A DNA stretch of 61,095 bases, counting the filler, from Basidiobolus ranarum (lineage: Eukaryota), in NCBI GenBank assembly GCA_040143965.1. It is 12 parts of 12 records of this genome, joined end to end, with 100 filler letters (N's around TTAATTAATTAA, not from the genome) between each part and the next. Parts side by side here need not be neighbours in the genome. Positions count along the whole stretch, not along the records: positions 45,928 to 50,918 come from JASJQH010008629.1; positions 51,019 to 56,007 come from JASJQH010008630.1; 10 more parts are not named here. One strand, 5' to 3'. Both the position numbers and the translations under genes were made by a program. This document shows positions 10,546-61,095 of the stretch, in pieces. Positions within the stretch are counted from its first letter, which is position 1; each line of letters opens with the position of its first letter. The notes under the pieces were generated by a model. The model had not been told where the DNA came from. It searched no databases and was given only the letters and a program-made list of their open reading frames with translations.

Positions 10546-13050
10546 TGTTTGCATTTTTTATCTTAAGTATTTCAAATATGTGTGATTGCATGGAAATTAT
10601 ATAATAAACTGCATTAGCAAAGTTAATCATAGTTTGATCTGAATCAATTTATCTTACATACATATAAAAATGGCTCAATGCAGAATGCATTATGCTTGTT
10701 CAAACTATAGGAAATTAGCTTTGACATTTTAACCAATAATATAGAAAGATCCCTAATTCTTAGTGAAATTAATAAAGTCTAACATCATAGATGTATATGG
10801 TAGTTACATATCATGTCAAAGCAGATTCTTCCTGATTCACAACCTACATTAGTACCAGAAACCAACACTTCCAAAATTTTGCATGTGCAGCTGAATGCAG
10901 GTGTAGGTGGCACAAAGCAGCATGCATCCAATGATTTTACAGATTCCCAGGTATCCACTATGAATTGTTGCTTGAATATATTAGAATTATTGATAAACAT
11001 GACAGAAGCTGTGGATGAGGGCATTAGATAAACATGGAAGCAACTTTTGACTCTGCTTTGGAGAGAATACTATTTCTTCATGCCTTGAGAAGTCTTCAAG
11101 AGAATATACAATAAGACTCATGAGGATAGAAAGTATGAATCAAGAAATAGGAATTTTGATTTTGAGTCCACAAAAACATGATGGCAATTGTGTTTTTGCT
11201 TGTGTGGACTGGAAGCAATCAGTGCAGCCTCAACATTAGAGACAAAAGATGTACTAAATGGATATTTACCAGTACTCAATGAGACTTTGCAGCAACTGTT
11301 GATGGAGGTTACAGAGTTCAAAACAACATTTCAGGACACCATGGCAAGAGTAATCAACAGAGGTATAAAGAAAAAAGTAAGACAATTTATTGAATTAGAA
11401 GATATTCCCAAAGGCAAATTGCAGAAGTCCAGACCATTGCACAGACATACTGGATCACTCCAAATTGTAAAGACTCTTGACAAGGTATCTATTTCACAAG
11501 AAGAATTTACACAACTCACCACTGGAATTGAGGTAATACCTCCAACAAGGGCAAGGGCCCAACAAGTTGGTTCATTAGCTAGTAGTACACATTGACAGCA
11601 CTACCAGCTTGGAAGAGTCTGTGATGTTTCTCCTGTTTTTGATGAAGAGCAAACAGTCAATAAAGAACCAGAAAGAGGATAGCCTGCATTCTCATGCATC
11701 ATGGTGTGCAATTTACCTGATTCAACCAAACCAATTAGTGAGCTTTTTACATCTGGCCAAGAGTTAGCTCTAAGGAGCATGCCACCAGACAGACATAATG
11801 GTTTAATGCATACCACTGGACACCAGCAACAAAGGCCAACTGTAGGAATTATTGAACCTTCTACTTTGTTGGATGAAGATCTGACTCCTGAGGGCAATCT
11901 TGTAAGATAGCAATCTGTTGCAACATGTATCCTCACAAGACCAAGACATTGGGTGTCTGAGAGATATAGTAGAGCTCTTACTGAGCTTGAAGAAGCCACA
12001 ATAGCTAAACACAAACCTGAAGGTAGACAATATGTTGCAACATGTACTGCCATATGAATGCAGCCATGGCCAGCCAAAAGAGATGAAGCTTTTACCATGC
12101 TTGAAGAGGCAAGAACTGCACAACACAAACCTCAAGGAAGATGAATGCTCAAATACATATTGCCATGCAACCACAGCCATGGCCAGTTGACATACATAAA
12201 GCTTCTACTATGGTTGTTGAATCAATAACTGTTCAGCACAGAACTTAAGTGAGACATTCCGGGTTGACACATAGAACTGCACACCAGTAGCAATGGCTGG
12301 TTGACTTATTAAGTTACAAAAATTGCTTTTGTCTTTATGAAACACTGATAGTATGAAATTGTAATATATGAACTAAATCAATGATAGCCTATTAATACAA
12401 GCAATTTCACTACAATTTAATGAAAAAGTCTGTCAATAAAAAGCTTGTGCAGCCATGTTGGCTCAATATGGCTCATTCCATTCATATTCTCAACCAACTA
12501 GAAGCTTATATGATTAAATAAACAATTTGCTAATCCAAAAAGATGAATCAAGTGATGCTGATCATTACAATCAGACTGCAGTTTGCTCCACTATTGAGTG
12601 CTGTGATTTATCACCAGTGTGCCAAAACTACTGCTGTTTCATAATGTGGGAGCCATTGAAGAACAGGATATTGTGTGAGTAAGAGATAAATGATTAGCCT
12701 AAAAACATATGATTGTCTTAGTTATATATTTGATAATGAAAGTTATGGTATAAATTGTTTATTGTTGCACATTCAACAATTTGTAAGTTACCAACCAAGG
12801 GATAAACTTGCTTTATTAGGTATCCAAAATAGTTATTTGGCAATACTAAATTGGGTAACTTGGTATGGGCTGGCATGATATCTCCAAAATATCATCTTGT
12901 CAGATGATGGTGTGATAGTGCCATATTGTTCCTTTTAGTTTCCAATTGAGTGTTACAGGACCTAGCCATGATAATTGACAGATTGTTCAGATGGTTTGTT
13001 AGCAGGCTAGATTGAGCAGCACAATATGACCTGGCCCAATGTAACAAGTC
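10546..13050 (+). mobile_element. PIF/Harbinger element, ORF2 arm through right TIR (decayed)
   Basis: 10546-12300 is colinear with 38455-40560; ends in AATGTAACAAGTC, the inverse of left terminus GACTTGTTCCATT (37279) with one mismatch. Confidence 0.75.
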
Positions 13051-17649: not shown

Positions 17650-19740
17650 AATTTCTGTTAGAGGTTATTCCAGTACTGATGGTAATATATCACAGGATGA
17701 TGAAGAAGGCAATGGCTTTGTTACCAACTCTTTGTTATTGAAAAGCAATAGGTCATGCATAACACTTACAGTAAAGGAAGCAGCTTTGATTTCTGAGGAG
17801 TGCAGAGTTCAATCCAATCTTGTCAACCAGATGTTTACTGGTTTTCTAACACTTTTAGTGTAGTTGATTGGTAATTGTGGGATGCCACAGACCCGGTACA
17901 AGTCAAAAACACTTGTTAATCATGTGACTTATAATTTGTCAAAAATTAATCTACACTAATGTCTAAATGGTTGTTTGTCTTTCACTGGTAATCTGAAAAC
18001 CCAAAGTCTTGAATTGTTTGCACACAATTGGCAATCACTGAGGCAGGTGAATATTGTTCAAATTTGGCTAACGTACCATTGATTCACCATCTTAAAACTC
18101 TGATGAAATAACCCAAATATAGATCATTGCTCCAATATCAAGGTACACACTGTAAAGCTGATGGTATTACCAACATAATTGATCAATGTGCAAACCAAAA
18201 TCTGACAAGTCAAGATTTCTTTGAGAGCACATTTGATCTTGCGTTTGGATTGGCTCTGAAAAGTCAAGGTTTCTTTGAGAACATGTACAATCATGCATTT
18301 TCATTGGCTCTGGATGGTTTCTTGCTAAACCAATATACCATTGGAAAGGCTTGCTGGCCAATAATTTTAATCAACTTAAATCGTCCTCCTTCTGAATGGT
18401 ATAAGAGTCACAATATTTTGATACTATCCATCATATCAGGACCTAAATCACCAGTGGTTATAGATAGCTTCTTGGAGCCTTTGCTTGTGGAATTTAAGTG
18501 GTTATCTAATGGGGTTCAAATGGGTGAATATTTTGTTAAAGCTAATATAATTGTATGTATTGGTAACATTCCTGCAATCAGTCTACTTTGAGGTTTCTGT
18601 GATCTCAATGTTCAATCCTGCTATAGATTTTGTCAAATCCATGGAGCTTACTCCACCTGGCATATGCATTACTACTATCCATATACAATACCAAGCTCCA
18701 TGATTTTACCATCAAGAGCCTGGTCAGATTTCACCATGCTCACTGATATCAATTCACAATATAGTCAGTCTAACATCAAACTTGGGATTAGTTGTAAGCC
18801 TGACATTATATTGCTAAAAGGGATTGGCTGGAGCCAGAGCTCCTCATTATGCACAATGCACCTACTATTCAACAACATTCTAATACTGCTTACTCAGCTA
18901 TGTAGTGGAAAATTCAATATGAATTAGCCATTAGAGATAGGATGAAAGTTTGAATCAACTGCAAAAATGCTTGAAAATATCAAGATACCATCATGTTGTA
19001 CCAGGACTCCCATCAATATCCACCCATCTATGAATTTATTCACATGCAAAGACTAGAAGCATGGGATTTATATATATTCAAGTGAAATCTTGAAAAGATT
19101 TCTGTCTGAAAATATTGGCAACATTAGGAGTTGTTTGTGGATATCATGTGTATGTTTTTGAGGTATCAACTCACATTGGCTGATCTCAGGCAGACACAGT
19201 GACTGTGTAGAGACTTTGCAATTGGATATGAAAAACTTCATCACAGATTTCAAGACTATAGACTGAATCTATGCCAATATTCAATACATTCCCTGCTGCA
19301 TCTTTCACAATGCTTGAAGATTGTAGGCCCTTGCTATAAATTCTGGAAGTTCTCAATGGAGTGTACCTGTGGTGAAATGATGCTCCATGTGAAATCCTTG
19401 GCATTGTCATATGTTAATCTGATTAACAATCTATCAGCGTAATCAGTTATGGATGTAATGCAGTTTGTTAACAAGACTCCAGAATATATATTAATCTTCC
19501 AACAGAGGGCTCTTTTCAATGTGCTTACAGGTTTCTGCATTGTTTGAGCACAATAACAACAACAAAACCCAATCCATGGACTCAGAGTAAATATATCTAT
19601 AGTTAGAACTAATTTGTTTGAGTGTCAATCAGAAGGTTTTTCTAGAAAAGCTGCAAAACAGACTTCTTGGCTAGATAGATTGCAATATGCAATACTATTG
19701 TTTTAGCCATGGCATAATCTATTCAAGGAATGATGCACCA
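17650..19740 (+). mobile_element. Decayed CACTA/EnSpm Tnp2-type transposase
   Basis: ALDGF...CWPIILINLNRPPSEWYKSHNILILSIISGPKSP..IDSFLEPL..EF..L..G...CIGNIPA and MHLLFNNI; many stops. Confidence 0.85.
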
Positions 19741-19779
19741 ACTTGTCATACTGCCATCAGCACTGGAATAACCAAGGTC

Positions 19780-38723: not shown

Positions 38724-40732
38724 ATGTCAAAACAGATTCTTCCTGATTTGCAACCTACTTTGGTACAGGGAACCACCACTTCCAAAATTTCACACGCACA
38801 GTCAAATGAAGGTGTGGGTGGCATGAAGCAGCACAAGCCTAATGCTTTTACAGATGCCCAGGTATCCACTATCAATTCTTGCTTGGATATATGGGAGTTA
38901 TTGATAAACTTGATAGAAGCTGGGGAAGGGGACATTAGACAAAAGTAGAAGCAACTTTCAACTCTGCTTTGGACAGAATACTGTATCATCATGCCATCAG
39001 AAGTCAGCAAGAAAATATACAAGAAGACTCATGAAGATGGAAAGCATGAATTGAGAAATAGGAATTTGGATTTTGAGTCTGCATAGACACAGTTCCAATT
39101 GCGTTTTTGCTGGTATGGACAAGAAGCAGCCATTGCAGCCTCAACTTCAGAGACAAATGATGCTGTTAATAGATATCCACCACTTCTCAATGAGACTTTG
39201 TAGCAACTGTTGATGGAGGCCGCAGAGTTCCAAACAACATTACAGGACACTATGGCATGAGTAATCAACAGAGGGGTTATGAGAAAAGCAAGACAGTTTA
39301 TTGAATCAGAAGATATTCTTGAAGGCAAATTGGAGCAGTCTAGACTGTTGCAGAGTCATACTAGAACACTCCAAATTGAAGAGACTCCTGACAAGATTTC
39401 TATTTCACAAGAAAAATCTATACAACTCATCACTAGAATTGAGGTAACACCTCCAACAAGGGCAAGAGCCAAACAAGTTAGTTCATGAGCTAGTAGTACA
39501 CATTGACAGCAACACCAGCTTGGAAGAGTCTTTGATATTTCTCCCGGTGTTGATCAAGAGCAAGCAGTTGATGAAGAAACAAAAAGAGGATGGCCTGCAT
39601 TCTCAAGCATTGTAGCATGCAATTTACCTGATTCAACCAAACCAATCAGTGAGCTTTTTACATCTGGAGAAGAGTCATCTCCAAGGAGCATGCCACCAGA
39701 AAGACATACCTGTTTAACACATACTACTGCATGACAGCAACAAAGGCCAAACACAAGAATTATTGAACCTTCCCCTTGGTTGGATGAAGATCTGACACCT
39801 GAGAGCAATCTACTAAGTCAGTAATTTGTTACAATGAGTACCCCCACAAGACCAAGACAATGGGTGTTTGAGAGAGATAGTGAAGCTCTCACTGAGCTTG
39901 AAGCAGCCACAACAGTTGAATACAAACCTCACGGTAGACAATATGCTCATGCATGTTCCACCATGCAACACAGGTGATGGTGGCCAGTTGAAAGAGATGA
40001 TGCCTCTACTGTGGTTGAAGAGGCAAGAACTGCCAAACGCAAACCTCAAGGTAGATGACTTGCTCCAACACATACTGGAAAGTGACCATGGCAATGGCCA
40101 GTTGAAAGAGATGAAGCTTCCACTGTGGTTCAAGAAGCAATAACCAACAAACATGAACCATAAGGTAGATAACTTGCTCCAACACAAACTGCCATGCAAC
40201 CACAACCATGGCCAGATGAAAGAGATGAAGCTTCTACCGTGATTGAAGAGGGAAGAACTGCCGAACACAAACCACAAGGTAGATGACTTGCTCCAACAAG
40301 TACTGTCTTGCAACTTCAATCATGGCTAGTCATAAGAGATGAAGAGTCCACTGTGGTTGAAGAAGCAATAACTGTCGAGCATAAACCTCAAGGTAGATGA
40401 CTTGCTCCAACATGTATTACCATGCAACCGTGGCCATGGCCAGTTGAAAGAGATGAAGCTGCTAATGTGGTTGAAGAAGCAAAAACTGTCAAGCACAAAC
40501 CTCAAGTGAGACATTCCAGGTCAATGCGTAGAGCTGGATGCCAGCAGCAATGGCTGGTTGGTCCATTAAGTGAAGGCTCCACATTTGAAGAAGAGACTGT
40601 AGATACAAATGAACTGCAAACTAGACCAAACAAGCCAATGCATACCACAGCACATCAACCTCAAGCCACAACTCATGCTGGCCAAGGTAGAGGAACTTCA
40701 GCAGGATCAAACCAACCAACTCAGTGCAGAGG
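38724..40732 (+). pseudogene. Harbinger ORF2: Myb/SANT-like N-terminus plus low-complexity repeat tail
   Basis: One frame read through stops: AFTDAQVSTINSCLDIWELL...DIRQK*KQLSTLLW...SKKIYKK; the domain call rests on spacing of aromatic residues and element context. Confidence 0.55.
39890..40560 (+). repeat. 114-bp (38-codon) tandem repeat, about 6 units
   Basis: AAACC.CAAGGTAGA-like anchor at 39924, 40041, 40155, 40269, 40383, 40497. Confidence 0.9.
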
Positions 40733-40832
40733 NNNNNNNNNNNNNNNNNNNNNNNNNNNNNNNNNNNNNNNNNNNNTTAATTAATTAANNNNNNNNNNNN
40801 NNNNNNNNNNNNNNNNNNNNNNNNNNNNNNNN

Positions 40833-41520
40833 CTTGGGCAATAAGACGATTGAGGTTGGCATAACAAGGACGCTCAATGTCAAGGTTGCGCTTGCAGATA
40901 TCATAGATAGCTTCGTTATCAACCATGAAAGAACAATCGGTATGTTCCAAAGTGGTATGGGTAGTCAAGATGGAGTTATAAGGCTCAACGACAGCGGTAG
41001 CAACTTGGGGAGCGGGATAGACAGAGAATTCCAACTTGGATTTCTTGCCATAATCAGCAGAGAGACGCTCCAAAAGAAGAGCTCCAAAACCGGAACCGGT
41101 ACCACCACCGAAAGAGTGGAAGACCAAGAAGCCTTGAAGGCCACTGCAGTTATCAGCAAGTTTACGAATGCGTTCAAGAACGGGATCAACCAATTCTTTA
41201 CCAATAGTGTAGTGACCACGAGCGTAGTTGTTAGCGGCATCTTCCTTACCAGAAATCAACTGCTCAGGATGGAAAAGTTGACGGTAGGCACCAGTACGAA
41301 CCTCATCAACAACAGTAGGCTCCAAATCAACGAATACAGTGCGGGGAACGTGCTTACCAGAGCCAGTTTCGGAGAAGAAAGTAGAGAAAGAATCATCGGT
41401 CTTAGGAACGGTCATTTGACCATCAGGTTGAATACCATGTTCAAGACAATAGAGTTCCCAACAGGCATTACCAATTTGAATACCGGCTTGACCGACGTGG
41501 ACGGAGATAACTTCACGCAT
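40833..41520 (-). CDS. TUB1: Alpha-tubulin, N-terminal about 229 codons; cut by contig edge
   Basis: [61 protein letters not shown]. Confidence 0.98.
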
Positions 41521-43094
41521 GATGATATATTAGTAAAAGTTCAAGGATTCGGAGCCGTTCGTGTTATGGAGAACAACGTCGAAAGAATGTGTGTTTGAAA
41601 TCGTGCAAGATTCACCGGTTTATATGATCCTGTGTGAGACCCTGATTTTTCATTTGTTTACTTTTGGTGCTCTTAGAGAGTTGATATCCATTGGCTCGTG
41701 ACTCAATGTTTGGGTTACAAATATAAACTTGATTGGTTACAAACAATCCAATCAAATCGTATTTGTCAATGGCGGTATTTTTTTTCCACTCCAACATCCT
41801 GGTCTCGATTAATCGTTACAATCATTAATCGAATTGTTTGACAAATGAAATATCGGCCATAGCCGATTTAGGGATTGATGATTGGGTATTTGTTGATTAA
41901 ATAGAGTATCTGATAATGCCTAGCAGAGGAGGTCTAGGTGATGTCAAGGAGCTTAGGGTTACACCGGAAGTAGATGCCACTAAAAGAGTTACAACCATTG
42001 AAGCGTCGACTGCGCTTTTGTTGAAAGAGAGTAAATGCGAACTCAAGTTAAAAATGAAGCTTTTCCGTACGGTCTTTCATGAAACATGTCTCAGGACTAG
42101 TAGAACTACTTCATGCTTCCGGAATATAAGGACGCGGTTACTGAAGTTGCTATTTTCGTATCTAATTTAGAGTTGGAGATGATTCATATACAATAGTTTA
42201 TCCTTGGCGAAGCTTTATAAATATGGGGTAATGTTACCGTTTACCCTCTCTTGGTCAGAATACGCTTGAAAAGGAACACTTGTGCTTGGTTGATAGCTAC
42301 AGGGCAGTTCACATTATGTTGGTAACCGATGAGACATTGAGATTGTGTGATAGGCTAAGAAACAGTTTTGGACATTGCTATCTCCAGGAAGTTCTTTTTA
42401 CTCCCGTGAGATGATTGTAATGAGAGGTCATTTCTCAAGGCCTTTCACATCGAGACAGTGCAACTATGGCGTTGCATGTTGGAAACAAGGCACACATACT
42501 TCGTAATCAGCACATGCACTGAGGTATAAAAGTCGAAGGTGTAACATCGAATCGATTTTTTAAACGAAGTTGGCAATAGATGACTTCATTGTAGATGGAC
42601 AAAGTCATGGATTGTATATTTAAATGTCTAGACCGTGGAGATTAAAGTTCGAGCGCAAGTAAAAATAGGCTAGCTTGGAAGCGTACTAGGGAGCTCACAT
42701 GATTGCATATACAACAGCCATCTAAACAACCATCAAGGTCAACTTCTTAATACATTTGGATATATCGAGCTTCCAGCACGGGGAATCTATTGAAGTATTT
42801 CGATATAAAAGTAGTAATGCTAGTCCATTTTCAAATGAGACTTTAGTTTATAATTAAATATATTTATTAATAATCAACATCAGTGGGGATTTGAAAATTT
42901 CGGGATTAGCTAATCGAGATGCACGGAAAACTAATCAGCTGTTTTATTGTCTGGTCAAACATGTTCTATTTGGAATCTAAGATTCAATAAATTAAGAATA
43001 GGCTATACCATGTATCGAAATACTATATAATACGGCTATTTGTAGTTTACGACTTAATATTTACAACACTGTATCCTAACTCATAAACGTAACA

Positions 43095-43946
43095 ATGACA
43101 CTTCCGTTTTCCGATAAAGATTCCGTCAACACGGCCACATCAGTACACGGGCTTCCACGCATGTATAACACTGCGTCTGAGGTCGAACAAGAGATTGCTA
43201 GTATAGCTATTCACAAGGCTCAGCGTACCTGGTATAGCCAGTGTATGAATGGATTTATGGCTGGTCTCTTTGTGGCCTTGATTGGTACTTTGGCCTACAC
43301 TGCTGGTGGTGGTTTAGACCCTGCTTTCACAAAAGCTTTCCCATCAGTCCAAAAGATCATATATAGTGGTTGCTTCGCCAGTGCTTTATTATTCATTGTC
43401 ATCTTCGGTGGGGATTTGTTCACCGGGAACTCTATGATCATGTTTGTTGGTGTCATTCATCGCAAGATCTCCATACTCGACCTGGCTTGGAACTGGTTTT
43501 TGATCTTCTTCAGTAATCTTTCAGGAGCCTTAATCTCCACGTATCTCTTTACCTACTTGACCGATCAGTTTGGGGCTGAACCATGGTTATCATGGGTGAT
43601 AGGTAATGCTGAACACAAGATCGGCTACTCCTTTGGTGTTGCCTTTCTCAAGGCTATACCAGCAAATGCTTTTGTGTGCTTTGGTGTGTACCTTGGACTT
43701 ACAGCTCGGGACATCACCGGGAAGTTCATCTGCTTCTGGTGGCCTGTATTTGCATTTGCTGTATGTGGCTATGAGCATTCCATTGCCAATATGTTCTATA
43801 TTCCAATTGGCATGATGTATGGCGCCAAAGTTACTGTCGGTGACTTCATTGTCAAGAACCTGATTCCAGTTGTGCTTGGCAATATTGTTGGTGGAGCTGT
43901 CGTCGTTGGCCTTTCTTCTTTCGCCCTGAATCCTAAGAATCATTGA
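43095..43946 (+). CDS. Formate/nitrite transporter (FNT) family channel, 283 aa, intronless
   Basis: GGDLFTGN, KAIPANAFVC, FAVCGYEHSIANM, NLIPVVLGNIVGG; about six hydrophobic segments. Confidence 0.95.
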   Translation: MTLPFSDKDSVNTATSVHGLPRMYNTASEVEQEIASIAIHKAQRTWYSQCMNGFMAGLFVALIGTLAYTAGGGLDPAFTKAFPSVQKIIYSGCFASALLFIVIFGGDLFTGNSMIMFVGVIHRKISILDLAWNWFLIFFSNLSGALISTYLFTYLTDQFGAEPWLSWVIGNAEHKIGYSFGVAFLKAIPANAFVCFGVYLGLTARDITGKFICFWWPVFAFAVCGYEHSIANMFYIPIGMMYGAKVTVGDFIVKNLIPVVLGNIVGGAVVVGLSSFALNPKNH

Positions 43947-45927: not shown

Positions 45928-48900
45928 AAGATTTCTGCCTGATAAGTATTGGCAACATTGGGAGTTGTTTGTGGATATTGTTAATATATTCTTATGGCAT
46001 CAACTCACATTGGCAGATCTCAGGCAGATACAGCAACTATGCAAAGATTTTGTAATTGGATATGAAAACCTTTATTATGGCATTTGTTGATTACAAGTTG
46101 GGGATATATTGGCTGAATTTTTTACAGAAATTTGCAAAAATCCAAGAGTGTATTCTCATTGTGAATGGTAACAAGAGTCAGCTATTTGCCAAGTGGTAGT
46201 GCTATTCAAAATTTCAGATGTTTAGCTTTTTTTCACCGTTATTTGCTGGTAAAGCATAATGATGTTATTGAGTTAACTTCCTGGTGCTTCATCACTTCTA
46301 TGGCTGCTTTTCTTTATTTTCCAAGTCAATAATTGCATACATCTTTGAGATGTTTCATGAATAGGCCTATATTAGCCCAATTGCCATTTGCTAGCAAAAA
46401 CCCAGGATAAGCCACATGAAATAAGTCACGAACCTTCAGAGTAACACCTGGTTTTTGGTTTAGCCACCATTGGCTCAAATACAGGTGATTTTGGGCAAAA
46501 TTCCACACAGTTTCCAATATGTTAAACCACTCATCATCAGAGCAAGTGATGGCAGTGCTGACATTCAGAGTCTGTTGGTTTGCTGATTTTCCTGTGAGAC
46601 TTCTACTTTGATGTGCCCAAGCAATTTTGGGTAGTTGTGTAGGCTGAATGGTTGGACCACTATTCTGCTCTGCTAGATTGTCATGGTGACATTCATATGT
46701 ATGGTGTGGGATTCATTGAAATCCCATATGAAAATAGACAGAGGGAGCAGCATGTTGCTGTTGCTAAAGTACAGCATTCTTAAGATCTTCTATCATTGTT
46801 GAGTGACTCTATAACTGTGGACTTGTTATTTCCAAACACTGCATTAATTGCAATATTGTGGCATTATTGCTTGTCATGGCCTGTATAGCAACTTCAAAGT
46901 TTTTACTTTTGATTGCATACTAACCTTTATGGTGTTCTGCCTGCAATTCCCTTGTTGTAATAATTCTATCCAAATTTTCTTTGGAGGCTTTTTCAATAGT
47001 GGACAAAGTAGCCATTTTGGAAATTGATGGTCTTGATGGTGTTTTGGTTGAACTTTCCTCAACTATTGATTTATTATGTAATTGGATGATTACAATCTCT
47101 TCACTTGCACTATTGCTTCAAAGGAACACATCTGGTAAATTGATTAATGCTTGAGCATTACTTGCGTTATTTTCTGGCATGTTAATGCCTTCCAAAGTGG
47201 CTAGTGGATCCCTAAACTGCTCATCAAATAAGTCCTCTATTCTTGCTGGTTTTTTTCCTTTTGGGCCAGCAGGCTTTAGCTTCAAAGCTGCTTTTGATTT
47301 AGATTTTCAATGCTTTGGAATGGCATTGCAATTTTCAGATGGTAACCTTGGTGCAATGAAGCTGCATAGAAACAGCTTATAATACACTAAAATTGCCAAC
47401 CATTACTGGAAATATCTTGTAAATCCCCTGACAACTCATCTGTGACACCATCTCAGATTCAGCTTATAATATTGATGGGCTATGCCCTAAATACCGCCTT
47501 ACATAGGAGGTGTTCTTTTTCCTACAATATACTCCTCATGCTGCAACACAAATGTTTAAAGAAGCCCTGCTATTATTGTCACAAATTCTTGTGCTATGAA
47601 AGCTGAAGGCTCCATAGAAACAATAATCTCAATCATGGTCACTGTACAAAGCCACCAGCTACAAAAAGCCTGGTATATAACAACAGTAATAAGTCCACTA
47701 AATTGTCTTTAGTTTTGCCCATTGAGTCCACCGACTATACCTTGCCTCAAAGTTTTGGTAACACTGCCAAAAGTCAAGATAACATGGAGTTACCACAGTT
47801 TTACTACCAGAATGATGTAGGTAGAAACACAACTTTGGGCAAACCAGTAATTCCAGACAACTTTGAGGAGTTACTGCTAGATGTTGACCTCAGTCATTCC
47901 AGTACCAGTGGTAGTATATCAGAAGTTGAAGAAGAAGACAACAGTTTTGTTATGGACTCTTTGTAATTGGCAAATATCATTCCATTCATAACACTTACAG
48001 TAAAGGAAGCAGCTTTGCTTATTAAGGAGTGGAGAGTTCAATCCAATCTTATCAACCATGTGTTTATTAGTTTTCTTACACTTTTACCACAGTTGATTTG
48101 CAACTCTTGCATACCACAGACCTGGTACCAGTGGAAAACACTTGTCAATCATTTGACTTATAATCCTTCAGTAATTAAACTGCCTTCATGTCCAAATGGT
48201 TGTTTGGCTTCCACCAGTGATCTGAAAAACCTGAAGTCATGTACTCTTTGCACACAATTGGCAATTGCTGAATCAGGTAAATATTGTTCATATTTGGCTT
48301 ATATACCATTGATTCCCCATCTTAAAGTTTTGATGAAATCACCCAAATATAGATCATTGATCCAATACCAAAGTACTCACCATGAAGCTGATGGTATTAA
48401 CAATATACTTGATGGATATCACTACCAGAATCCAGAAAGTCAAGGTTTCTTTGAGAGCATGTATGATCATGTATTTGAATTTGCTCTGGATAATTTCCCA
48501 CTAAACAAATATACCATTGGAAAGGCTTGCTGGCCAATATTTTTAACCAACTTAAATATTTCTCCTGCTGACTGGTATAAGAGTCATAATATTTTGATAC
48601 CTTCCATCATATTAGGACCTAAAACACAAGTGCTGATAGACAACTTCTTGGAGCCTTTGATTGTGGAACTTGAAGATTATCTAATGGGGTTCAGATAGGT
48701 GAATATTTAATTCAAGCTAACATCATTGTTTATATTGGTGACCCTCCTGCCATCAGTAAATTTGGAGGCATTTGTAGACACAGTGCACTATCTTGCTGTA
48801 GATTTTGTCAAATCAATGAGGTTTACTTTATCAGGCATACATATTACTACCATCCAAATACAACACTAAACTCCATGATTTTACCATCAAGAGAGCAGTC

Positions 48901-49089
48901 AGATTTCAACATGATCACCGATATCAATTCACCAAATAGTCAGTCTAACATCAAACTTGGTATTAGCCATAAGCCTAAGACTATATTGCTAAAGGGGATC
49001 AGCTGGAGCCAGAGCTTTCCATTAGGCATTATGCGCTTATAACTCAACAACATTACAATATTACTTACTCAGCTATATAATGGAAAATT
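45928..49089. mobile_element. CACTA-family element: transposase scraps (+, to about 46275), ORF2 (-, about 46275-47500), transposase (+, about 47700-49089)
   Basis: SCPNGCLA...SCTLC, ALDNF, CWPIFLTNLN, GPK, FLEPL, IGDPPAISK...CCRFCQI. Confidence 0.88.
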
Positions 49090-49479
49090 TGTTGAAGTAC
49101 ATGGTCTTTATCATATTTGTTATCTCTATCTTTGTACACGTAACTATTTCATATATCATATATAAGTTAGTCAACATTAGATAGTCAAACATCACTTAAC
49201 TGAAAATTGGAACATATATTATATATGTGTGAATAATGTGAGAATTAGCAATTCCATATTGGAGATATCAAACATGTCCAAGTCAACCCAAAGATAGCTC
49301 ATTTTACTCCCACAGATGTTTGGAACACAACCCCAGTGTTAGTTTTCTGTATTTCCGCCAAAATGTATAAATGCTATATTTCTGGACAATAAGTAATTAT
49401 CTCACAAAGCTATTCACAACTCCACTGTTCTAAAGTTCCTCCAAACAGCCCATATTTTTCCAATAGGTTATGAGTCCCA
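49090..49479 (+). repeat. Copia 5' LTR (49090-49465) and primer-binding site (49466-49479)
   Basis: TGTTG...CAATA followed by GGTTATGAGTCCCA, a variant of the copia GGTTATGGGCCCA PBS; starts where CACTA homology stops. Confidence 0.72.
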
Positions 49480-49957
49480 TGCTCTAACCTTCACTGCACA
49501 ACAGAAACCACTACTACCACTCTTATTAACTAGAGTGTTGAAATGCTTGATTGAGAAAATTACAATTTCTGGTAGTTCAAGATGAAAATCCTGCTGGAAG
49601 ACAGGGAGCTTTGGGATGTAGTCTCTGGATATGAAAAGGAACCTGCTGACCCTTCTTTACTGGAAGCTTAAAAGAACAGAAGTAAGAATTTGGAAAACAA
49701 ATATGAGGAATTGGCTCTTTTTGGAGCTGGAAAACACAGCTTTATAACTGAAGTGAATCATGGGGGCATCTCTGGGGACAAGTGTTTGACACTGAAAAAT
49801 GTGCTATATGTGCCTGCAATAGCAAAAAAATTTGTATCAGTGAATAAAGCTACATCTCAGCGTTAAAACTTTAATTTTGACCCAAATGGCTGTATAATCA
49901 GGTACCAAAAAGGCAATTATGTAGGTTCTGGAGCTAAGCAAAATAACTTGTATAAAC

Positions 49958-50239
49958 TATTGAAATTATTTAGGGAGAAATATTGGTCTGGCCTGGATTT
50001 GAACCTGGGACCTCCTTCACTCTGGCAAGGTGCTCTGACCACTAAGCTCCCAGTCCTTGTATACTATGCCTATATTGCCAGGGAACCTTAACCTAGTCTG
50101 TCAATGTATGCTACTTTGGCATTTCAGCTTTACAAGCAACTGATTGGCCTTAGACTTTGTGTTCAGATGCAGTCACCATACTCCGTAGTTTCCTCTTTGG
50201 GAATTACTGCTTGTACCACAAGTCACCAGACTTTCAACA
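49958..50239 (-). mobile_element. Solo LTR-like insertion, 282 bp, 5-bp TSD TAAAC
   Basis: TAAAC|TATTGAAA...TTTCAACA|TAAAC; removing it restores the Copia frame NNLYKLYYVRP...WYRRMGHLG. Confidence 0.85.
49984..50056 (-). pseudogene. 73-nt tRNA-like cloverleaf inside the solo LTR
   Basis: GGACTGG GA GCTT AGTGGTCA GAGC A CCTTG CCAGAGT GAAGG AGGTC CCAGG TTCAAAT CCAGG CCAGACC A: four stems, A box and B box; anticodon loop non-canonical. Confidence 0.8.
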
Positions 50240-51082
50240 TAAACTTTATTATGTTAGGCCAATATATGAGCAAGTTAATACTGCCATGGCTGAAGAGATA
50301 GACTGGAAAATCTGGTATAGGAGAATGGGTCATCTAGGAGCTGAAAATATGACAAATTTAATCAAAAACAAGATGGTTTTGGGACTAAATTTTGTAATTT
50401 AACCAGATCAGGAGCTATGTGAGAATTGCCTATATAGTATGTAACACAGACAGCCATTTATGGCCTCTGGAATGAGTAAACTTGACAAAAATTGGGCCTG
50501 ATACACTCAGATCTGTGCGGCCCAATGCAGACAAAATCCTTAGGCAGAAAAAGGTACTTTATGATTTTTATTCATGATAGGACAAGGTATATTTAGGTGT
50601 ACTTTCTGGCCAGTAAGGATGAAGCCTTTGATACCTTCCAGAAATTCAAAGCAATGGTGGATACTGAAACAGGTCTAAAGATTAAGATTAACCATACTGA
50701 TAACCCTAACAAAAATAAAATCGATTTGATCCGGATCGGATACACCCTCCAAAATAGCAAAACCGTCAGAGAACCGTCACAATATCGTTGGCTTGCATTC
50801 TGCCAGGGATTTTGATGATGTGACGGCGGTTTCTTGACGGTATCTTGGCGGTATTCATACATGTTAAATTATTGATCCTCAAATTTGGCATGCGTTATTC
50901 AATATCCAGCAATTTTAGNNNNNNNNNNNNNNNNNNNNNNNNNNNNNNNNNNNNNNNNNNNNTTAATTAATTAANNNNNNNNNNNNNNNNNNNNNNNNNN
51001 NNNNNNNNNNNNNNNNNNAAAGTATGACATTAACAAAGACATTGAGACACGTATCATATGCAGTATGAATAAGAAAGAACGA

Positions 51083-51978
51083 TTAGCGATTGAAGTTATA
51101 CAACTCGTCACACCATTCAGAAGTTGCCCCACACCACCCGAATTTAGAACAACAAACGCTTGGTGGACAGATGACCGCCACATCACCTATATACCCGCAC
51201 CGGGTATCAGTAGACACGACAGTTGGAATGGGCGAAGTTGCCGTCTGAGTAGAGGTTGTAGTGGTAGAGACGCTTGAATCTGTAGTGGTGGTAGATGCAC
51301 TTGAAGTGGTAGCGGAAGTAGTGGCGGTAGATGCACTTGAAGTTGTAGTGGAGGCGGTAGTGGTAGAAACGCTTGAAGTTGTGGCAGAAGTAGTAGCAGT
51401 AGATGCACTTGAAGTTGTAGTAGAGGGAGTATTTGTACCTGTTGATGAGGTAATTGCAGTTGTTGAGAGGGTGGGAGTAGTCACTTTGCTAGTGGATACA
51501 CTGGATGTGCCTTTGGTGGTATATTTTGAGGTAGTGGTTTTTGCCGTGGTTGTAGACTTGGTTGTGGTCCTAGTGCATTTGGTTGTAGAAGGCTTGATGG
51601 TAGTCTTCGTAGTGCATTTGGTTATAGTAGAAGGCTTGATATTCGATTTCACATAAGCAGGTGATTTATGATGAACTATGGGCTCACGGTAGTTGAGGCA
51701 TTGGGATTTACAACGAACTACACAATGGTCCTTAGTGTATCCGCACCTATATCATCAAATAACAGAAAGTCTTGTTTAACACTGACCGAAACATCACAGT
51801 ATCAAAAGCTGGAAATCATTACTTACAATCCTTCAGTTGAGCAGCATAGTCCTTGTGGGCACGTATATTTCACACCCTTGATGACTCCACACCGCTTAGT
51901 AGTGGTGATGATTGCTTGAACAATGGCTAAGTGCAAAAGAACTGCCACAAATGCGAAGACTTTCTTGGAGAAAAGCAT
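51083..51978 (-). CDS. Secreted chitin-binding protein, CBM18 - Ser/Thr linker - CBM18, about 271 aa (exons 51978-51827, 51746-51083)
   Basis: Signal [61 protein letters not shown] across a GTAAGT..TAG intron; C-terminal RCG...CPPSVCCSKFGWCGATSEWC. Confidence 0.9.
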
Positions 51979-52875
51979 GACTAAGAGATGATGGTTATTT
52001 CATATTCTACACTAGCTCTTATATACCTCTGTCCGATATTAAGCGGATCTTTCAGTAGCAGTTGGACCTCGATTAAAGCCAGACTAGTTCTAAAGTGTAT
52101 AATATTGGTCTCAAACTCCACTATATCTAACAAGTTGAATCTTGAAGCATTCTCCTTAGGTTTAGAAGTATCAATAAACGACCCCTAAAGAAGGAAGAGT
52201 GATTGGACCAGGAGGCTACTCTTGCGATGTATATCAGGATACAGGCTCAATATTTGCGGGCGCTAGGTATATATGATCCAGTTAAGCCAAGTGCTCATAT
52301 GATCTTCTTTTTAAGGAATAAAGTCTGATGAATCCATTTCTGACTACAAATTTCAACTGGGTTTATAGCTTTATTCGTACCCAAACTGAGTCAAGATCAC
52401 ATTAATCTATCACTAAATACTTGTATTGCAATTATAGAATAAGAGCACTATCTAGCCCAAGTATAATTCAGTTGGCGTATTTAAGAAATCTCTCTTTTTC
52501 GTATGGAATGATGGAGAGTGCCAACATACATACATACTTTTTTATAATAGAATGCCTCATATGGTAATGCACCATATAACTAGCTCTATTAGGCTAAGCA
52601 TGTGTCTTTCTTGGTATAAATGTAACTTCATCCCTTATATTTTTTATACTCCAGTTAAATAACACTATATGTCTATCATTAAAAGGTTTGCTACTTACAG
52701 AGTGCTACTTCAACTGCAATATAAGCTATCAAGAACCTAAGAAAGCAGGTATAAAATCTTAAACACGATTTAATGCATGCAAAAGTCAAAAAAATATCAA
52801 ATGGCTTAATTCTAAGACTTATGCTTGATTACTATTAAAAATCCATTGAATAAAATTATGAGTGAAAATCCGGCT

Positions 52876-53212: not shown

Positions 53213-54045
53213 GATATTAAGCGGATCCTTGGTTGACAATTGTACCTCGGTTAGAACCAAACTAGTACTCAAGTGCATAGTATTGGTCTCAATCACCAAC
53301 AAATTCACCAAGTTGAATCTAATATACTGCACTATATCTAACAAGTTGAATCTAGAAGTATTCCCCTTGTATTAGGAAATATCAACATAGGACTCTTGAA
53401 GAAGGAGGAGTGATTAGACCAGGTGGCTGCTCTTGCCATGTATATCAGGATAAGGGTTCAATAATTGTAGGCGCTAGCTATATATGATGTAGTTCAACCA
53501 AATACTAATACGACCCTTCCTTCTAGAGAATAAAATCTGATGAATCATGGATCTCACATGATATATTACATTACAATACCTAGGTTGAAAGTGGGTTCAT
53601 ATTTGATCACAAATTACAACTGGGGTGGGAACTTTATCCGTGCCCAATCTGAGTCAAGATCACATTAATCTATCACTAGATAATCATATTGCATATATAG
53701 AATAGGAGTATGATCTAGCCAAACGTGAGTGCCAACATACATATGTATATATTTATATTAGAACCCTTCAGATGTAAATGCACCTTGTAACTAGCACAGA
53801 AAGTCTAAATATATGTCTTTCTTGGTACAAATGTATGTGTATGCCTTTCTATGTTTTCATTACTTCAATTAAATACTACTATTACTAAAAAGTATACTGC
53901 TTGCGGTGCTATTTCACTCAGTAATTACGTTCTAAAATGATGAGTGAAAATCCAACTTTAATCAATGATAAACATACAATCAAAGTATGACATTAACAAA
54001 GACATTGAGACACGTATCATATGCAGTATGAATAAGAAAGAACGA

Positions 54046-54941
54046 TTAGCGATTGAAGTTATACAACTCGTCACACCATTCAGAAGTTGCCCCACACCAC
54101 CCGAATTTAGAACAACAAACGCTTGGTGGACAGATGACCGCCACATCACCTATATACCCGCACCGGGTATCAGTAGACACGACAGTTGGAATGGGCGAAG
54201 TTGCCGTCTGAGTAGAGGTTGTAGTGGTAGAGACGCTTGAATCTGTAGTGGTGGTAGATGCACTTGAAGTGGTAGCGGAAGTAGTGGCGGTAGATGCACT
54301 TGAAGTTGTAGTGGAGGCGGTAGTGGTAGAAACGCTTGAAGTTGTGGCAGAAGTAGTAGCAGTAGATGCACTTGAAGCAGTAGTAGAGGGAGTAGTTGTA
54401 CCTGTTGATGAGGTAATTGCAGTTGTTGAGGGTGTGGGAGTAGTTGCTTTGCTAGTGTATACGCTGGATGTGCCTTTGGTAGTATATTTCGAGAGAGTAG
54501 TTTTTGCCGTGGTTGTAGACTTGGTTGTGGTCCTAGTGCATTTGGTTGTAGAAGGCTTGATGGTAGTCTTCGTAGTGCATTTGGTTGTAGTAGAAGGCTT
54601 GATGGTCGATTTCACATAAGCAGGTGATTTGGGATGAAATATGGGCTCACGGTAGTTGAGGCATTGGGATTTACAACGAACTACACAATGGTCCTTAGTG
54701 TATCCGCACCTATATCATCAAATAAGAGAAGGTATTGATTAACAATGACCGAAACATCGCAGTATCAAAAGCCTGGAATCATTACTTACAATCCTTCAGT
54801 TGAGCAGCATAGTCCTTGTGGGCACGTATATTTCACACCCTTGATGACTCCACACCGCTTAGTAGTGGAGATGATTGCTTGAACAATGGCTAAGTGCAAA
54901 AGAACTGCCACAAATACGAAGACTTTCTTGGAGAAGAGCAT
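54046..54941 (-). CDS. Second intact CBM18-linker-CBM18 paralog (exons 54941-54790, 54709-54046)
   Basis: Same structure as 51083-51978, offset by 2963 bp, few substitutions. Confidence 0.9.
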
Positions 54942-56107
54942 GGCTAAGAGATGATGACTATTTCACATTCTACACTAGCTCTTATATACCTTTATTCGCT
55001 ATGTAACGGATTTTTCAGTGATAGTTAGAACTCAATTACAACCAAACTAGTTCTAAGGTGCATAATATTGGTCTCATACTCCACTATATCTAACAAGTTG
55101 GAGCTTGAAGCATTCTCCTTAAGTTTGGAAGTATCAACATAGGACTCCTAAATAAGGAAAAGTGATTATATCAGAAGGCTACTACTCTTGTGATGTATAT
55201 CAGAATAAAGGTTTACTTATTGCGGGCGGTAGCTATATGCGATCTAGTTAAACCAAATACTAATATGAACTTTCCTTTTAGAGAATAAAGTCCGAGCTAA
55301 TGAGATCTTTACTTCTAGAGAATAAAATCCGGTGAATCCCGAGTCTAACGCAATACATTGCAATACAATAAAATGCTTGGCTTGAAAGTTGGTGAATTCA
55401 TTCTTGATCACAAATCATAACTGGATTGAGAACGTTATCTGTGCCCAAACTAAGTCAAGATCACATTACTCTATCACTAGATTCTTGTATTGCAATTATA
55501 GAATAGGAGTAAGATCTAAACGAAGTATAATTCAGCAGACGAATTTGACAAACCTCTTTCTTTCGTATGGAATGACAAAGAGTGTCAACATACATACATC
55601 TATTTTTATACTATAACGCCGCAGATAATATTGCACCTTGTAACTACTACCGATTGGCTAAATGTATGTCTGTCTCTTACCACCCTTTTGCTACTCCAGT
55701 CAATACTACCAAATGTCTATCATAAAAAGGCTTACACCCTACAGCCTGCTACTATACTCACTGATTAAAATATAAGCTATCGAAAACCTGTGAGACACGA
55801 TTTAGAGAGATAAGGAAATTTGGAAAGAATTTTCGTGCGTGTACATATAAGAAAGCAGGAACCGAATTTTGAACACGAATTTATGCATGCAAGAGTCAAA
55901 AAGTTATCAAACAGCTTCTGAAAATGTCCTACTCTTGTCTTTTATAGTAGATTATCGTTACAAGATCTATTCAATAAAATGATAAGTGAAAATTCGACTT
56001 CAAGGATNNNNNNNNNNNNNNNNNNNNNNNNNNNNNNNNNNNNNNNNNNNNTTAATTAATTAANNNNNNNNNNNNNNNNNNNNNNNNNNNNNNNNNNNNN
56101 NNNNNNN

Positions 56108-59100
56108 TAATTCAATACTTTGAAAAGTACCAGTTGAGGTTGGAGAGATGTGAGTTTTATTTGCTGGTGTTGTGGCTTGTTGAGAGGTGCCAGATATTGG
56201 ATAAACTTCCAAATTTAGGACACTTCCAACTGGTGCACCTGGCTCCATGGTAAAATTAAGCTTTTTTGTCAGTATATCTGATTCTGGAAATGCAGATCTT
56301 TGTAATGGTGTGAAAAATTCAATAAGTGAGACAATAGTGCCAACACTCACTGGCTCCTTTGTTTTTCCCTTGCATTTACTAACTTCCTGCTCCTTGAGTA
56401 CTTCTTTAGCTGCTTTTCTTTCTTTTCCAAGTTGATAATTGTGTACATTTTTGAGATGTTTCATGAATAGGCCTATACTAGCCCAATTGCCATTTGCTTG
56501 CCAAATCCAGGTTAAGCAACATAAAATAAGTTAGGAGCCTTCAGAAAAACACCTGGTTTTGGTTTTTCCACAATTGGCTCAAATCCAGGTGATTTTGGGC
56601 AAGACTCTGCAAAGTTTTGAAGATGTTAAGCCACTCATCTTCTGAGCAAGTGATGGCAGTTTAGACATTCAGAGTCTTTTGGTTTCCCAGCTTTCCTATG
56701 AGATTCCTACTTTCATGTGTGCAAGAAATTTCAGATTGTTGTGTAGGCTTAATGGTCCAACATATATTCCGTTCTGCTAGATTGTCACAGTGACATTCAT
56801 ATGTATGGTGTAGGATTGATTGAAATCCCATGTGAAAATGGATGGAAGGAGCAGCATGTTGCTGTGGCTCAAGAAAAGCATTCTGAAGGTCTTGTATCAT
56901 TGTTGAGTGACTCTCTAACTGTTGATTAGTTGCTTCCAAACACTGTATTTATTGCAATAATGCAGCATTATTACTTGTCACAGCCTGTATAGCAACTTTG
57001 GTGTTTTTACTTATGAATACATACAAATCATTACTGTGTTCTGCCTGCAATTTCCTTGTTGTAATAATTCTATCCAAACTTTCTATGAAGGGTTTTTCAA
57101 TAGTAGGCAAATAGACATTTTGGAAGTTGATGATCTTGATGATATTTCTGTTGAACTTTGCTCAACTGTTGATTCAATATGCAATTTGGGGATTACAATC
57201 TCATCACTAGCACCATTGCTGGAAAGAAACACATCTGGTAAATTGATTAATGGATAATAACTACTTCAGTTATCTTCCAGCCTGTTAATGCCTATCAAAG
57301 TGGATAGTGTATTGCTAGACTGCTCATCAATTAAGTCCTCTGTTCTTGCTGATTTTTTCCTTTTGTGCCAGCATGCTTTGGCTTGGAAGCCACTTTGGAT
57401 TTAGATTATGCATGCTTTTTGAATGGCATTGAAATTGTCAGATGGTAGACTTGGTTTAATGAAATTGCTTAGAAACAGCTCAAAATAAACCAAAATTGCC
57501 ATCCATTACCATGAATATCTTGTCAATCCCCTGATGACTCATCTGTGACACCATCTCAGAATCAGCTGATGATATTGATGTGCTCTACCTAAAATACCAC
57601 CCTTACATAGGAGGTGTTCTTTTTCCACAATATCCTTCTCATGCTGCAACACAATCATTTAAAGAAGCCCTGCTATTATTGTCTCAAATTCTTATACTAT
57701 GATAGCTGGAGGCTTCATAGAAAAAATAATCACAAGCTTGGTCACTGAACAAAGCCACTGGCTGCATAAAGCCTGATGAATATCAACATTAATCAGTGCT
57801 CAAACTCAACTTTAGTCTTGCCCACTGAGTCCACTGACTATACTTTGTCTCAAAGTTTTGGCAACACTGCCATAAGTCAAGATACCATGAAGCTACCACA
57901 GTTATATGACCTGAATGATGTAAATAGAAATGCAACTTTGGTTGGACCAGTAAGTCCAGACAACTTTGAGGATGTGCTGCTCAATGTTGACCTTGTTATT
58001 ACAGTACTGATGGTAGTATATCAGAAGTTGAAGAAAGAAGACAATGGTTTTGTCATGGACTCTTTGTTATTGGCAAGCATTAGTCCACTCATGACACTGA
58101 CAGTGAAGGAAGCAGCTTTGACTATTGAGGAGTGGAGAGATCAATCCAATATTGGCAACCAGGTGTTTATTGGTTTTCTTACACTTTTACCATAGTGGAT
58201 TGGCAACTGTTGCTTGTTGCAGCCCTGGTAGAAGTGAAAAACACTGGTCATTGACATGTCTTGTTATCCTTCTATAATTAAGCTATCTTCCTGTCAAAAA
58301 GGTTGTTTGGCTTTGACTGGTGATCTGAGAAACCTGAAGTCATATACTGGTTGCAAACAATTGGCAATCACTGAATCAGGTAAATATCCTTCACAGTTGG
58401 CTTACATACAATTGAATCCCCATCTTGCTGTTTTGATGAAATCACCCAAATGTAGATAATTGATCCATTACCAAAGTACTCACTGCAAAGCTGATGGTAT
58501 TACTGATATACTCAATAAATATTACAACCAGAGGCTGAAAAGTTTAGATTTCTTTGAGAACACACATGATCATTCATTTGCATTAGCTCTAGATGGTTTC
58601 TCACTAAACAAATATTTTATTAGAAAGACTTACTGGCCAAAAATTACAATAAGCTTGAATCTTTCTCCTTCTAAATGGTGTAAGAGTCATGATATAGTGG
58701 AACTTTCAAACATATCTGGACAATATCATCACCTATGGATAGCTGCTTGGAGCCTTTGATAACAGTGCTTGAATGGTCATCTCACTGGCTATAGATTAGT
58801 GAATAATTTTGTGATAGCTAACATCATTGTATGTATTGGTGGCACTCCAGCCATTAATACACTTGTAGGTTCTGTGCTCTCAATGGACCATCTTGCTGTA
58901 AATTTTATCAGATCAATGAAGTCTACTCTTACATGCATACACTATGCTACTATTTTAATACATCACCAACTTCCATGATTTTACCACTATGAACCCAGTC
59001 AGATATCTATATGCTCACTGATATCAGGTCACCAAATTTTTGGTCTAACATCAAACTTGGGATTAGCCATAAGCCTAAGATTATTTTGCAAAAGTGGATC

Positions 59101-60377
59101 TCCAGGAGCCAGAGCTTGCCATTAAGAACTATGCACTTACTATTCGGCAACATTCCAATACTACCTACTCAGCTATATAGATGAAAATTCAACATGATTG
59201 AGCTATTCAACACAGTATCAAAGTTTGAAATGTTGGGGAAAATGTTTGAAAGAATCAAGATACCATCATCTTTTAGCAGGACTTCCATCAATACCCACTT
59301 ATCTATGCATTTATTCATAAGCAAAGACTGGAAGTATTAGATTTCTACATATTAAAGTGAAATCTTCAAAAGATTTCTGCCTGATAACTATTGGCAACAT
59401 TGAGAGTTGTTTATGGATATTGTTAATATATTCATATGGCACAAGTTCCCATTGGTAGATCTCAGGCAGATACAATGACCATGCAAAGGATTTGTTATTG
59501 GATATGAGAAACTTTACTACAGGTTTAGACAAGGTAGACTGAATTTATGCCCATATTCTATAAATTCCTTGCTGCATCTTTCAAATGCATAGAGACTGTA
59601 GGTGTTTGCTATACATTCTGGGAATTCCCAATGGAGTGCAGGTGTAGTCAAATGACACTCTGTGTGAAATTGTCAGTATTACTGTTTGCTAATCTGATTC
59701 ACAATGTATTGGCAAATCCAGTGATGGATTTAATGCAATGGGTAAAGGAGATGCTAGAGTATATACTCATTCAAACAAAGGGCTCTTTTCAATATGATCA
59801 TGAATTTTTTCACTGGTTAAACACAATAACAACAACAAACTCTAATCCATGGACTCTGAGTATTTACTTTTACAATCCAGACTAATTTGTTTTTGTGATA
59901 ATCTGACAGTTTTTCTAGGAAAGCAGCAAGACAGACTTCTTAGTGAGATAGAATAACATACACAGTATTGTTGTTTTAGCCATGAGGTAATCTTTTCAAG
60001 CAATGACAAATCTGCTTGTGGCAGTACATTTGCTGACCACAAGTTGGGGATAGTTTGGCTGAATTCTTTACAGCAATTTGCCAAAATCCAAGAGCTTATT
60101 CTCATTGTGAATAGTAACAGAAGTCAGGTATTTGCTAAGTGTCAGTTCAGTTCCAAATTTCAGATATTTGGCAACTTTTCCACTGCTTGTTTGGTGGTAA
60201 AGCATACTGATGTTGTTGAATTACATCTGTTCAGACAAATATATGTATATTTAGAACCTAAATACAAGATTCTTGTACTTTTTGATACTCATTGTAGCTG
60301 GAATATAAAGCCTAAGATATCTAATTAAGCATGCTTATTATTTCAAACTCCTATAGTAGTAAATTGAATTATTTTTT
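56108..60377. mobile_element. Longest CACTA-family copy: ORF2 (-, 56108 to about 57650) and decayed transposase (+, about 57776-60330)
   Basis: ALDGF, YWPKI..LNLSP, CIGGTPA, MHLLFGNI, CYTFWEFPME; colinear with 46275-49089. Confidence 0.88.
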
Positions 60378-60544
60378 GTGGGAGAGGGGGAAGTGGGGTG
60401 TAGGTAGGTTACTTGCAAGCAATGCAAAGCTCCCCCCCTATCTAGGCCTCCTTGCCTTTCAGGAGGAGGCCCCCCACGGGGGGCATTTGGCAGCTGGTTG
60501 CTGCCTTGGCCAGGGGGCCTACTAGAAGTAGGTATCAATGTTTT

Positions 60545-60945
60545 TTGATTCAATAACTTCCGGCTCTTGACGGGCGATTAGTACATCTTCCAGATTCCAT
60601 TTCACCGTGGCATGGTGATCCACGATTACTAGCAATTCCGACTTCAGGGAGCCGAGTTTCAGGCTTCCATACCGTACAAAGTTGAATTTGGGCTCTGGCT
60701 CAAGAGCTCAAGGGGGCTCTAAATGCCAAAGGGGATTGGTTTCTTTCCCTTGTCTCAAAGGAATGTGGCACATCTGTAGCCCAATCGATTAGGGCTTGTC
60801 TTGATCCCTTTACTACCCGGCTAACTCAAGGGTAACCAGACAGTTGGAAGAAGCTCCGGTAACTGTCTGGGGGGGTTTTGTTCGTTAGCGCACTTAAGCT
60901 GAGATTTCACAACACGAACTGTCGACAGCCATGCAACGCCTGGTG
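60545..60945 (-). rRNA. rns: Fragment of mitochondrial-type SSU rRNA (3' major domain), probably a NUMT
   Basis: Minus strand has, in 16S order: CAGGCGTTGCATGGCTGTCGACAGTTCGTGTTGTGAAAT, TAACGAACAAAACCC, TGGGCTACAGATGTGCCACA, TGAAGTCGGAATTGCTAGTAATCG, GCCACGGTGAA, GTACTAATCGCCCGTCA. Confidence 0.85.
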
Positions 60946-61095
60946 AATCCTGAATGGTGTAGTGGGGTAGCATTGCTACCCACTGGCAGATTGACTTATT
61001 TCCACTCCAAGCTCATATCATTACTATTGCATAATTTCTATTTTATTATCCTTATTTGACTTACACATATTTTCTAGCCAATCATATCACACTAT

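Follow-up and report, generated by a model that had tools for sequence, protein, structure and literature searches.

A probable solo LTR with a decayed tRNA-derived segment, resembling Helenus, in a Copia remnant of the Basidiobolus lineage

A 282-bp insert that interrupts a dead Copia element in fungal DNA of the Basidiobolus lineage is probably the solo LTR of a retroelement that was integrated in the Copia manner and that carried a tRNA-derived segment within its LTRs, an anatomy that resembles that of the Helenus elements ('TRIMp3'). We found this insert in a stretch of 61,095 nucleotides, filler included, which we refer to as the window. It is bordered by a target-site duplication, has asymmetric termini of the LTR type and contains, in sense orientation, the relic of a tRNA gene (Table 1). 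The preliminary description of this DNA knew of no fungal element of this sort, but one has been described: Helenus, a group of TRIMs (small non-autonomous LTR elements) whose LTRs hold tRNA-derived sequence, was published from fungi in 2024, and its consensus sequences are deposited in Repbase (Kojima 2024, Biology 13:119, PMC10886601). The kind of element is thus already known, and the insert is an example of it from a fungal lineage where it is unreported, seen as a single decayed copy.

Table 1. Positions of the insert, of the Copia element that hosts it and of their parts, counted along the window.
Feature	Position	Strand	Basis or remark
Insert, probable solo LTR, 282 bp	49958..50239	minus	Frame restored on removal; termini of the type of the host Copia LTR
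Target-site duplication, left copy, TAAAC	49953..49957		Direct reading
Target-site duplication, right copy, TAAAC	50240..50244		Direct reading
tRNA-derived segment, 73 nt, element positions 184-256 of 282	49984..50056	minus	Rfam RF00005
Box A-like motif GAGCTTAGTGG	50039..50049	minus	Fits RGCY...YGG of the Helenus pattern; first base G, not T
Box B-like motif GGTTCAAATCC	49995..50005	minus	Includes GGTTC
Host Copia 5' LTR, 376 bp, TGTTGAAGTA...TTCCAATA	49090..49465	plus	Repeat homology stops at 49089; abuts the primer-binding site
Host Copia primer-binding site GGTTATGAGTCCCATGCTCTAACC	49466..49489	plus	Complement, in our reading, is the anticodon stem-loop of a tRNA with a CAU (Met) anticodon
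Degenerate gag-pol remnant of the host Copia, split by the insert	49540..50815	plus	Translations; Pfam fragments

The insertion is secured by the reading frame that it breaks; the termini by themselves are modest to weak evidence. When the insert and one copy of TAAAC are deleted, the flanks translate as a single continuous Copia frame (...GAKQNNLYK joined to LYYVRPIYEQ...WYRRMGHLG). Pfam places a Pol_BBD fragment (E 8.3e-05) directly upstream of the insert and a gag_pre-integrs fragment (E 7e-06) directly downstream, both scoring below the curated cut-offs owing to their shortness; the other four of the six Copia fragments scanned matched no Pfam family. The direct repeat around the insert measures 5 bp in the reading adopted here and 7 bp when the overlap is counted (ATAAACT, at 49952-49958 and 50239-50245, with an offset of 287). 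Because this longer repeat overlaps the ends of the insert, the position of the boundary has an uncertainty of 1-2 nt; we chose the 5-bp reading because it gives ends of the LTR type, TG... and ...TA. In minus orientation the ends are then TGTTGAAA...TTTCAATA, or in a fuller reading 5'-TGTTGAAAGT...AATTTCAATA-3'. When the window was searched for TGTTG...CAAYA termini accompanied by a 5-bp duplication, the insert was the sole match, and 30 shuffled windows gave 0.3 matches on average and two at most. The 282-bp insert with its TAAAC duplication in a Copia frame, as proposed in the preliminary description, is thereby confirmed, and the remark that a single copy is visible was also borne out: when the window was searched with the insert by blastn, the self match was the only one, the next best alignment having an E value of 0.58 and a length of 26 nt at most. 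No Copia paralogue with an empty site was found in the window, where the matches were partial integrase sequences and none ran across the junction. Metagenomes were scanned twice with transition-tolerant patterns drawn from around box B and box A, with 0 matches each time.

The host Copia element is degenerate as well. Its 5' LTR starts with TGTTGAAG and ends with CAATA, and its left boundary is set by a repeat of the window, whose alignments to three other copies all end at 49089. Of 12 matches to the motif of the LTR/primer-binding-site junction in the window, one is exact and 11, against 8.85 expected by chance, have three mismatches each. In our reading of the complement, the primer-binding site corresponds to tRNA-Met, and the host Copia would appear to prime from a half-tRNA-Met, as do Ty5 and Drosophila copia. 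These two elements, together with Copia families of rust fungi, have been described as priming from the tRNA anticodon loop (PMC10886601). The translations contain stops, a frameshift and an internal deletion in gag, and the element is dead. Rfam detected no tRNA-like match inside its LTR.

The Copia element is itself nested in repetitive DNA. Fragments with a Transposase_21 (CACTA/tnp2-type) domain form a repeat with three copies (~17700-19750, 47500-49089 and 57600-60180) that are ~63-86% identical across the repeat blocks; the middle copy is the one that the host Copia interrupts, the Copia sitting exactly at the point beyond which the three other aligned copies continue. At 60524-61095, on the minus strand and truncated by the end of the window, the bacterial SSU rRNA model matches weakly (98.7 bits, model positions 1004-1533, 44.6% G+C); this sequence adjoins a transposon copy and could be organelle-derived or a decayed rRNA fragment. 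The window also contains 22 runs of 44 N (968 N in total), paired every ~5.1 kb (for example at 5015-5114 and 50919-51018), which look like masking and not like biology; one such pair covers the region just 3' of the Copia remnant.

When we compared the insert with the host Copia LTR, we observed that both have the same asymmetric pair of ends, TGTTGAA...CAATA, the insert being read in minus orientation. The similarity of the first 30 nt of the insert to the start of the host LTR was equalled by only 0.34% of 5000 random 30-mers of the window. At the 3' end the last 5 nt are identical, and the comparison of the terminal 30-mers was not significant (11.8% of the random 30-mers did equally well). 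No similarity was found between the bodies of the two sequences, the best local alignment covering 20 nt. The shared ends support integration of the insert by what would be a Copia-type integrase, and the TA end, being shared with the host Copia LTR, may be native and need not derive from CA by mutation. The shared asymmetric termini also fix the orientation of the LTR, and it follows that the tRNA relic lies in sense and occupies the part of the LTR where R/U5 would be situated.

A short insert with a direct repeat on both sides could also be read as a MITE, in which the tRNA relic would be incidental, the duplication would be 5-7 bp and the terminal inverted repeats would be imperfect and 8 bp long. 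Indeed, seven of the eight terminal positions are complementary. However, the inverted repeat stops at 8 nt, and the difference between the two ends is the one seen in the neighbouring Copia LTR, whose own 3' end is fixed by the primer-binding site. We know of no DNA transposon superfamily that fits both the ends of the insert and the length of its duplication, and we regard the MITE reading as highly improbable.

The tRNA-derived segment was recognized by the Rfam tRNA model RF00005 over its full length (model positions 1-71) with 40.5 bits, above the gathering score of 29, and an E value of 3.8e-05 for the whole window. It is the sole tRNA match in the window, being one of two Rfam matches at the gathering level and one of five at E<=10, and no other tRNA-like relic was found there by Rfam at E<=10. 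The preliminary description spoke of a complete tRNA-like gene, a 73-nt cloverleaf with A and B boxes situated 26 nt from one end. The length, the distance (26 nt, measured to the end of the insert at 49958) and the box-like motifs all stand, and the cloverleaf does not: the minimum-energy fold of the 73 nt has another shape, with -19.9 kcal/mol and a z-score of +0.59, and 140 of 200 shuffled sequences fold equally well or better. "Complete" was likewise an overstatement. With default settings ARAGORN predicts 0 tRNAs, and a 'tRNA-Ser(aga)' is called only when the thresholds are lowered (-ps90, -ps80). In the cmscan alignment three stem pairs are non-standard and the anticodon loop, CCAGAGU, lacks U33; the triplet at the anticodon position is AGA (Ser), and the body that carries it has a short variable arm. 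A functional tRNA gene is ruled out by these features taken together with the ARAGORN result and the failure to fold. The tRNA part is a decayed relic, and the copy is dead and encodes no working tRNA.

We looked for signs that the tRNA part had entered the LTR on its own after integration. A duplication of its own was not found around it, the best flanking repeat being a 6-mer (CAATAT) that was reached by 1149 of 5000 shuffles; nor does an A-rich or simple-repeat tail follow it, the sense strand continuing for only 26 nt to the end of the insert. The earlier observation that the tRNA part has no separate duplication or tail was therefore borne out. The tRNA part is enclosed by the target-site duplication and no repeat flanks it separately, and so it belonged to the LTR when the element integrated. 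During reverse transcription a single template serves to rebuild the two LTRs of an element. If the segment was present in the LTR at integration, this mechanism of LTR replication implies that the parent element carried it in both LTRs.

The same observations bear on the possibility that the insert is a non-LTR retroposon, such as a SINE of tRNA origin, and not an LTR. A SINE would contain a segment derived from a tRNA, with both boxes, and the size of the insert falls inside the 100-700 bp range of SINEs (PMC10886601). However, in sense orientation the tRNA part begins only after 183 nt, while a SINE begins at the tRNA head; an A-rich or simple-repeat tail is missing, and the ends are inverted, LTR-like and matched by those of a Copia LTR. 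The comparison with SINE2 elements leads to the same place: the insert shares with them a module of tRNA origin with both boxes and differs in that its tRNA part lies away from the 5' end, is not followed by a tail, and is placed between ends and a duplication of the LTR type. We consider a SINE or other non-LTR origin of the whole insert very unlikely.

Whether the relic served as a promoter is a separate question. In the sense strand of the insert no run of T is longer than three, so that no Pol III terminator is visible. This absence is not unusual, since T4 is also missing in 48% of 20000 shuffles and in 201 of 1134 tiles of the window. Nor was a depletion of T runs significant as a sign of Pol III use: sequences without both T4 and A4 made up 5% of the shuffles and 60 of the 1134 window tiles.

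The insert could alternatively be the solo LTR of an ordinary LTR element driven by RNA polymerase II, in which a captured tRNA or SINE fragment was a passenger that had no role as a promoter. Its parent would then be either a Copia that was autonomous or some plain non-autonomous element of small size, and the evidence from the insertion and the termini would be the same as for a Helenus-like LTR. The decayed tRNA part that does not fold and the absent Pol III terminator both speak for a passenger. Upstream of the relic there is a CCAAT motif at 50143-50147 and, at 50059-50076, a stretch rich in A/T, as in a Pol II promoter, although such short motifs are unremarkable at the window G+C content of 37%. 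Many LTRs in Repbase have tRNA-like pieces and only some of them belong to TRIMs (PMC10886601). On the other hand, the box A-like and box B-like motifs have been kept despite the decay of the stems, which is the pattern seen in Helenus (PMC10886601), and the relic is in sense at the position where the transcript would be expected to start. We consider a Pol II-driven LTR with a passenger tRNA fragment a serious alternative, though rather unlikely, and favour as probable a Helenus-like LTR whose tRNA-derived segment may have served as a promoter or marked the start of the transcript.

The resemblance to Helenus concerns several features. In the published families box A (TRGCY...YGG) and box B (GGTTC) are conserved and most tRNA parts are non-functional; fungal and plant families make 5-bp duplications, reported LTR lengths go up to 323 bp and total lengths are 311-1263 bp, and many of the fungal families survive only as solo LTRs (PMC10886601). 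The insert likewise has a tRNA-derived LTR segment in which box A (RGCY...YGG) and box B (GGTTC) are kept and the tRNA is non-functional, and it has a 5-bp duplication, an LTR of 282 bp that is within the reported lengths, and the solo-LTR form. Its box A departs from the TRGCY pattern at the first base, which is G instead of T. [quoted passage not shown] A primer-binding site of the Met anticodon-loop type is present here in the host Copia and is not the insert's own. The AGA triplet of the insert recalls some families of rust fungi that are called 'tRNA-Ser-AGA' (PMC10886601, Table 2), a resemblance only.

We compared the insert and the published families by anatomy, with one solo copy on our side, beside which no second LTR, primer-binding site or polypurine tract was seen, and the insert is thus a putative member of Helenus. 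The hosts differ too, a Basidiobolus-like fungus on the one hand and Pucciniales with a few Agaricomycetes on the other. In fungi, 113 Helenus families have been described in rust fungi (Pucciniales) and more in the Agaricomycetes Agaricus, Coprinopsis and Amylostereum; the screen started from Repbase LTRs and was then extended to genomes related to the seed genomes (PMC10886601). The terms 'Zoopagomycota' and 'Mucoromycota' are absent from the main text of that article. In the literature we found no description of tRNA-bearing LTRs besides this article, and none for Basidiobolus. The origin proposed for Helenus is the insertion of a SINE2 into an LTR, and tRNA-like pieces occur in 'not a few' ordinary LTRs of Repbase (PMC10886601).

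The plant TRIMs known as Cassandra contain a 5S rRNA domain in their LTRs and have kept the 5S terminators (PMC10886601). The insert resembles them in harboring, inside an LTR, the relic of a small-RNA gene with an internal Pol III promoter; it differs in that the relic is of the tRNA type and not 5S, and in that no terminator is seen. No 5S family was among the three Rfam matches at E<=10 in the region 49800-50400, which speaks against the 5S type of TRIMp3 (Cassandra, Ajax). The preliminary description proposed a solo LTR with a tRNA-type Pol III promoter as a counterpart of Cassandra. The structural part of this proposal is the one that best fits the anatomy, and the Copia-LTR-like termini agree with it, while Pol III use is putative; in Helenus itself, transcription by Pol III is unproven by experiment (PMC10886601).

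In a Helenus-like element of this kind, the box A and box B relic would recruit RNA polymerase III, or would at least mark the start of the transcript, about three quarters into the 5' LTR. A short transcript would then run through the primer-binding site, a small internal part and the polypurine tract into the 3' LTR. A resident Copia could provide the reverse transcriptase and the integrase in trans, integration would create the 5-bp duplication, and a later recombination between both LTRs would have left the present solo LTR. The primer-binding site of the host Copia is complementary to a CAU anticodon stem-loop, and the insert has termini of the type of that Copia; the insert differs from such anticodon-loop-priming Copia elements in having neither coding capacity nor a primer-binding site, and its LTR body is unrelated to that of the host Copia LTR. 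The suggestion that the element supplied its own primer gained no support here: this solo copy has no primer-binding site, and the anticodon region of the relic differs from the tRNA segment implied, in our reading, by the primer-binding site of the host Copia. In Helenus the tRNA part is not complementary to the primer-binding site, and self-priming was examined and rejected there as well (PMC10886601).

Two protein-coding genes of the window inform on the host. For a formate/nitrite transporter, encoded by a single ORF (43080-43946, plus strand), the five best named matches all come from Basidiobolus with 74-86% identity, and the next ones have 52% or less (175 matches at E<=1e-20). For a BTB protein, the closest named relative is again Basidiobolus, with 85% identity among three matches in all. 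Judged from these matches, the host appears to be an early-diverging fungus near Basidiobolus, outside the Basidiomycota from which fungal Helenus has been reported. Below Basidiobolus, the transporter matches are unnamed metagenome proteins (43-52%) and lower named ones that are mostly bacterial, mainly of the Bacteroidota type (~35-42%), a pattern that would be compatible with an ancient acquisition of the gene from bacteria. The window has further repeats of its own. A block at 51019-52000 is duplicated at 53982-54963 with 96.5% identity over 983 bp, and each copy encodes a Thr/Ser-rich, secreted-looking protein with a terminal chitin-binding (hevein-type) domain and 36-nt internal repeats. 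A tandem array of 114-bp units (39980-40511) adjoins an alpha-tubulin exon (40777-41529, minus strand), and a unit related to it is found at 11952-12141.

We see about even chances that the insert represents a Helenus-type family in Basidiobolus, which would be the first in an early-diverging fungus and outside the Basidiomycota, either of independent origin or as part of an old shared lineage, and which would have been mobilised by a Copia that primes from the anticodon loop of tRNA-Met. Should this be so, LTR elements with tRNA promoters may recur wherever Copia lineages with anticodon-loop priming live, and some tRNA gene predictions in the large genomes of early-diverging fungal lineages may be LTR relics. 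In rust fungi, Helenus-type LTRs inflate the number of predicted tRNA genes (PMC10886601, Table 2). Since elements of this kind have been published, the main value of the present finding is one of housekeeping, namely that Helenus-type LTRs should be masked when genomes of early-diverging fungi are annotated. If a Basidiobolus family is confirmed, Helenus-type elements would extend beyond the Basidiomycota, and a second fungal lineage would become available in which to ask whether an LTR element is indeed transcribed by Pol III from its tRNA relic and whether elements of this kind originate recurrently beside Copia elements that prime from half-tRNAs.
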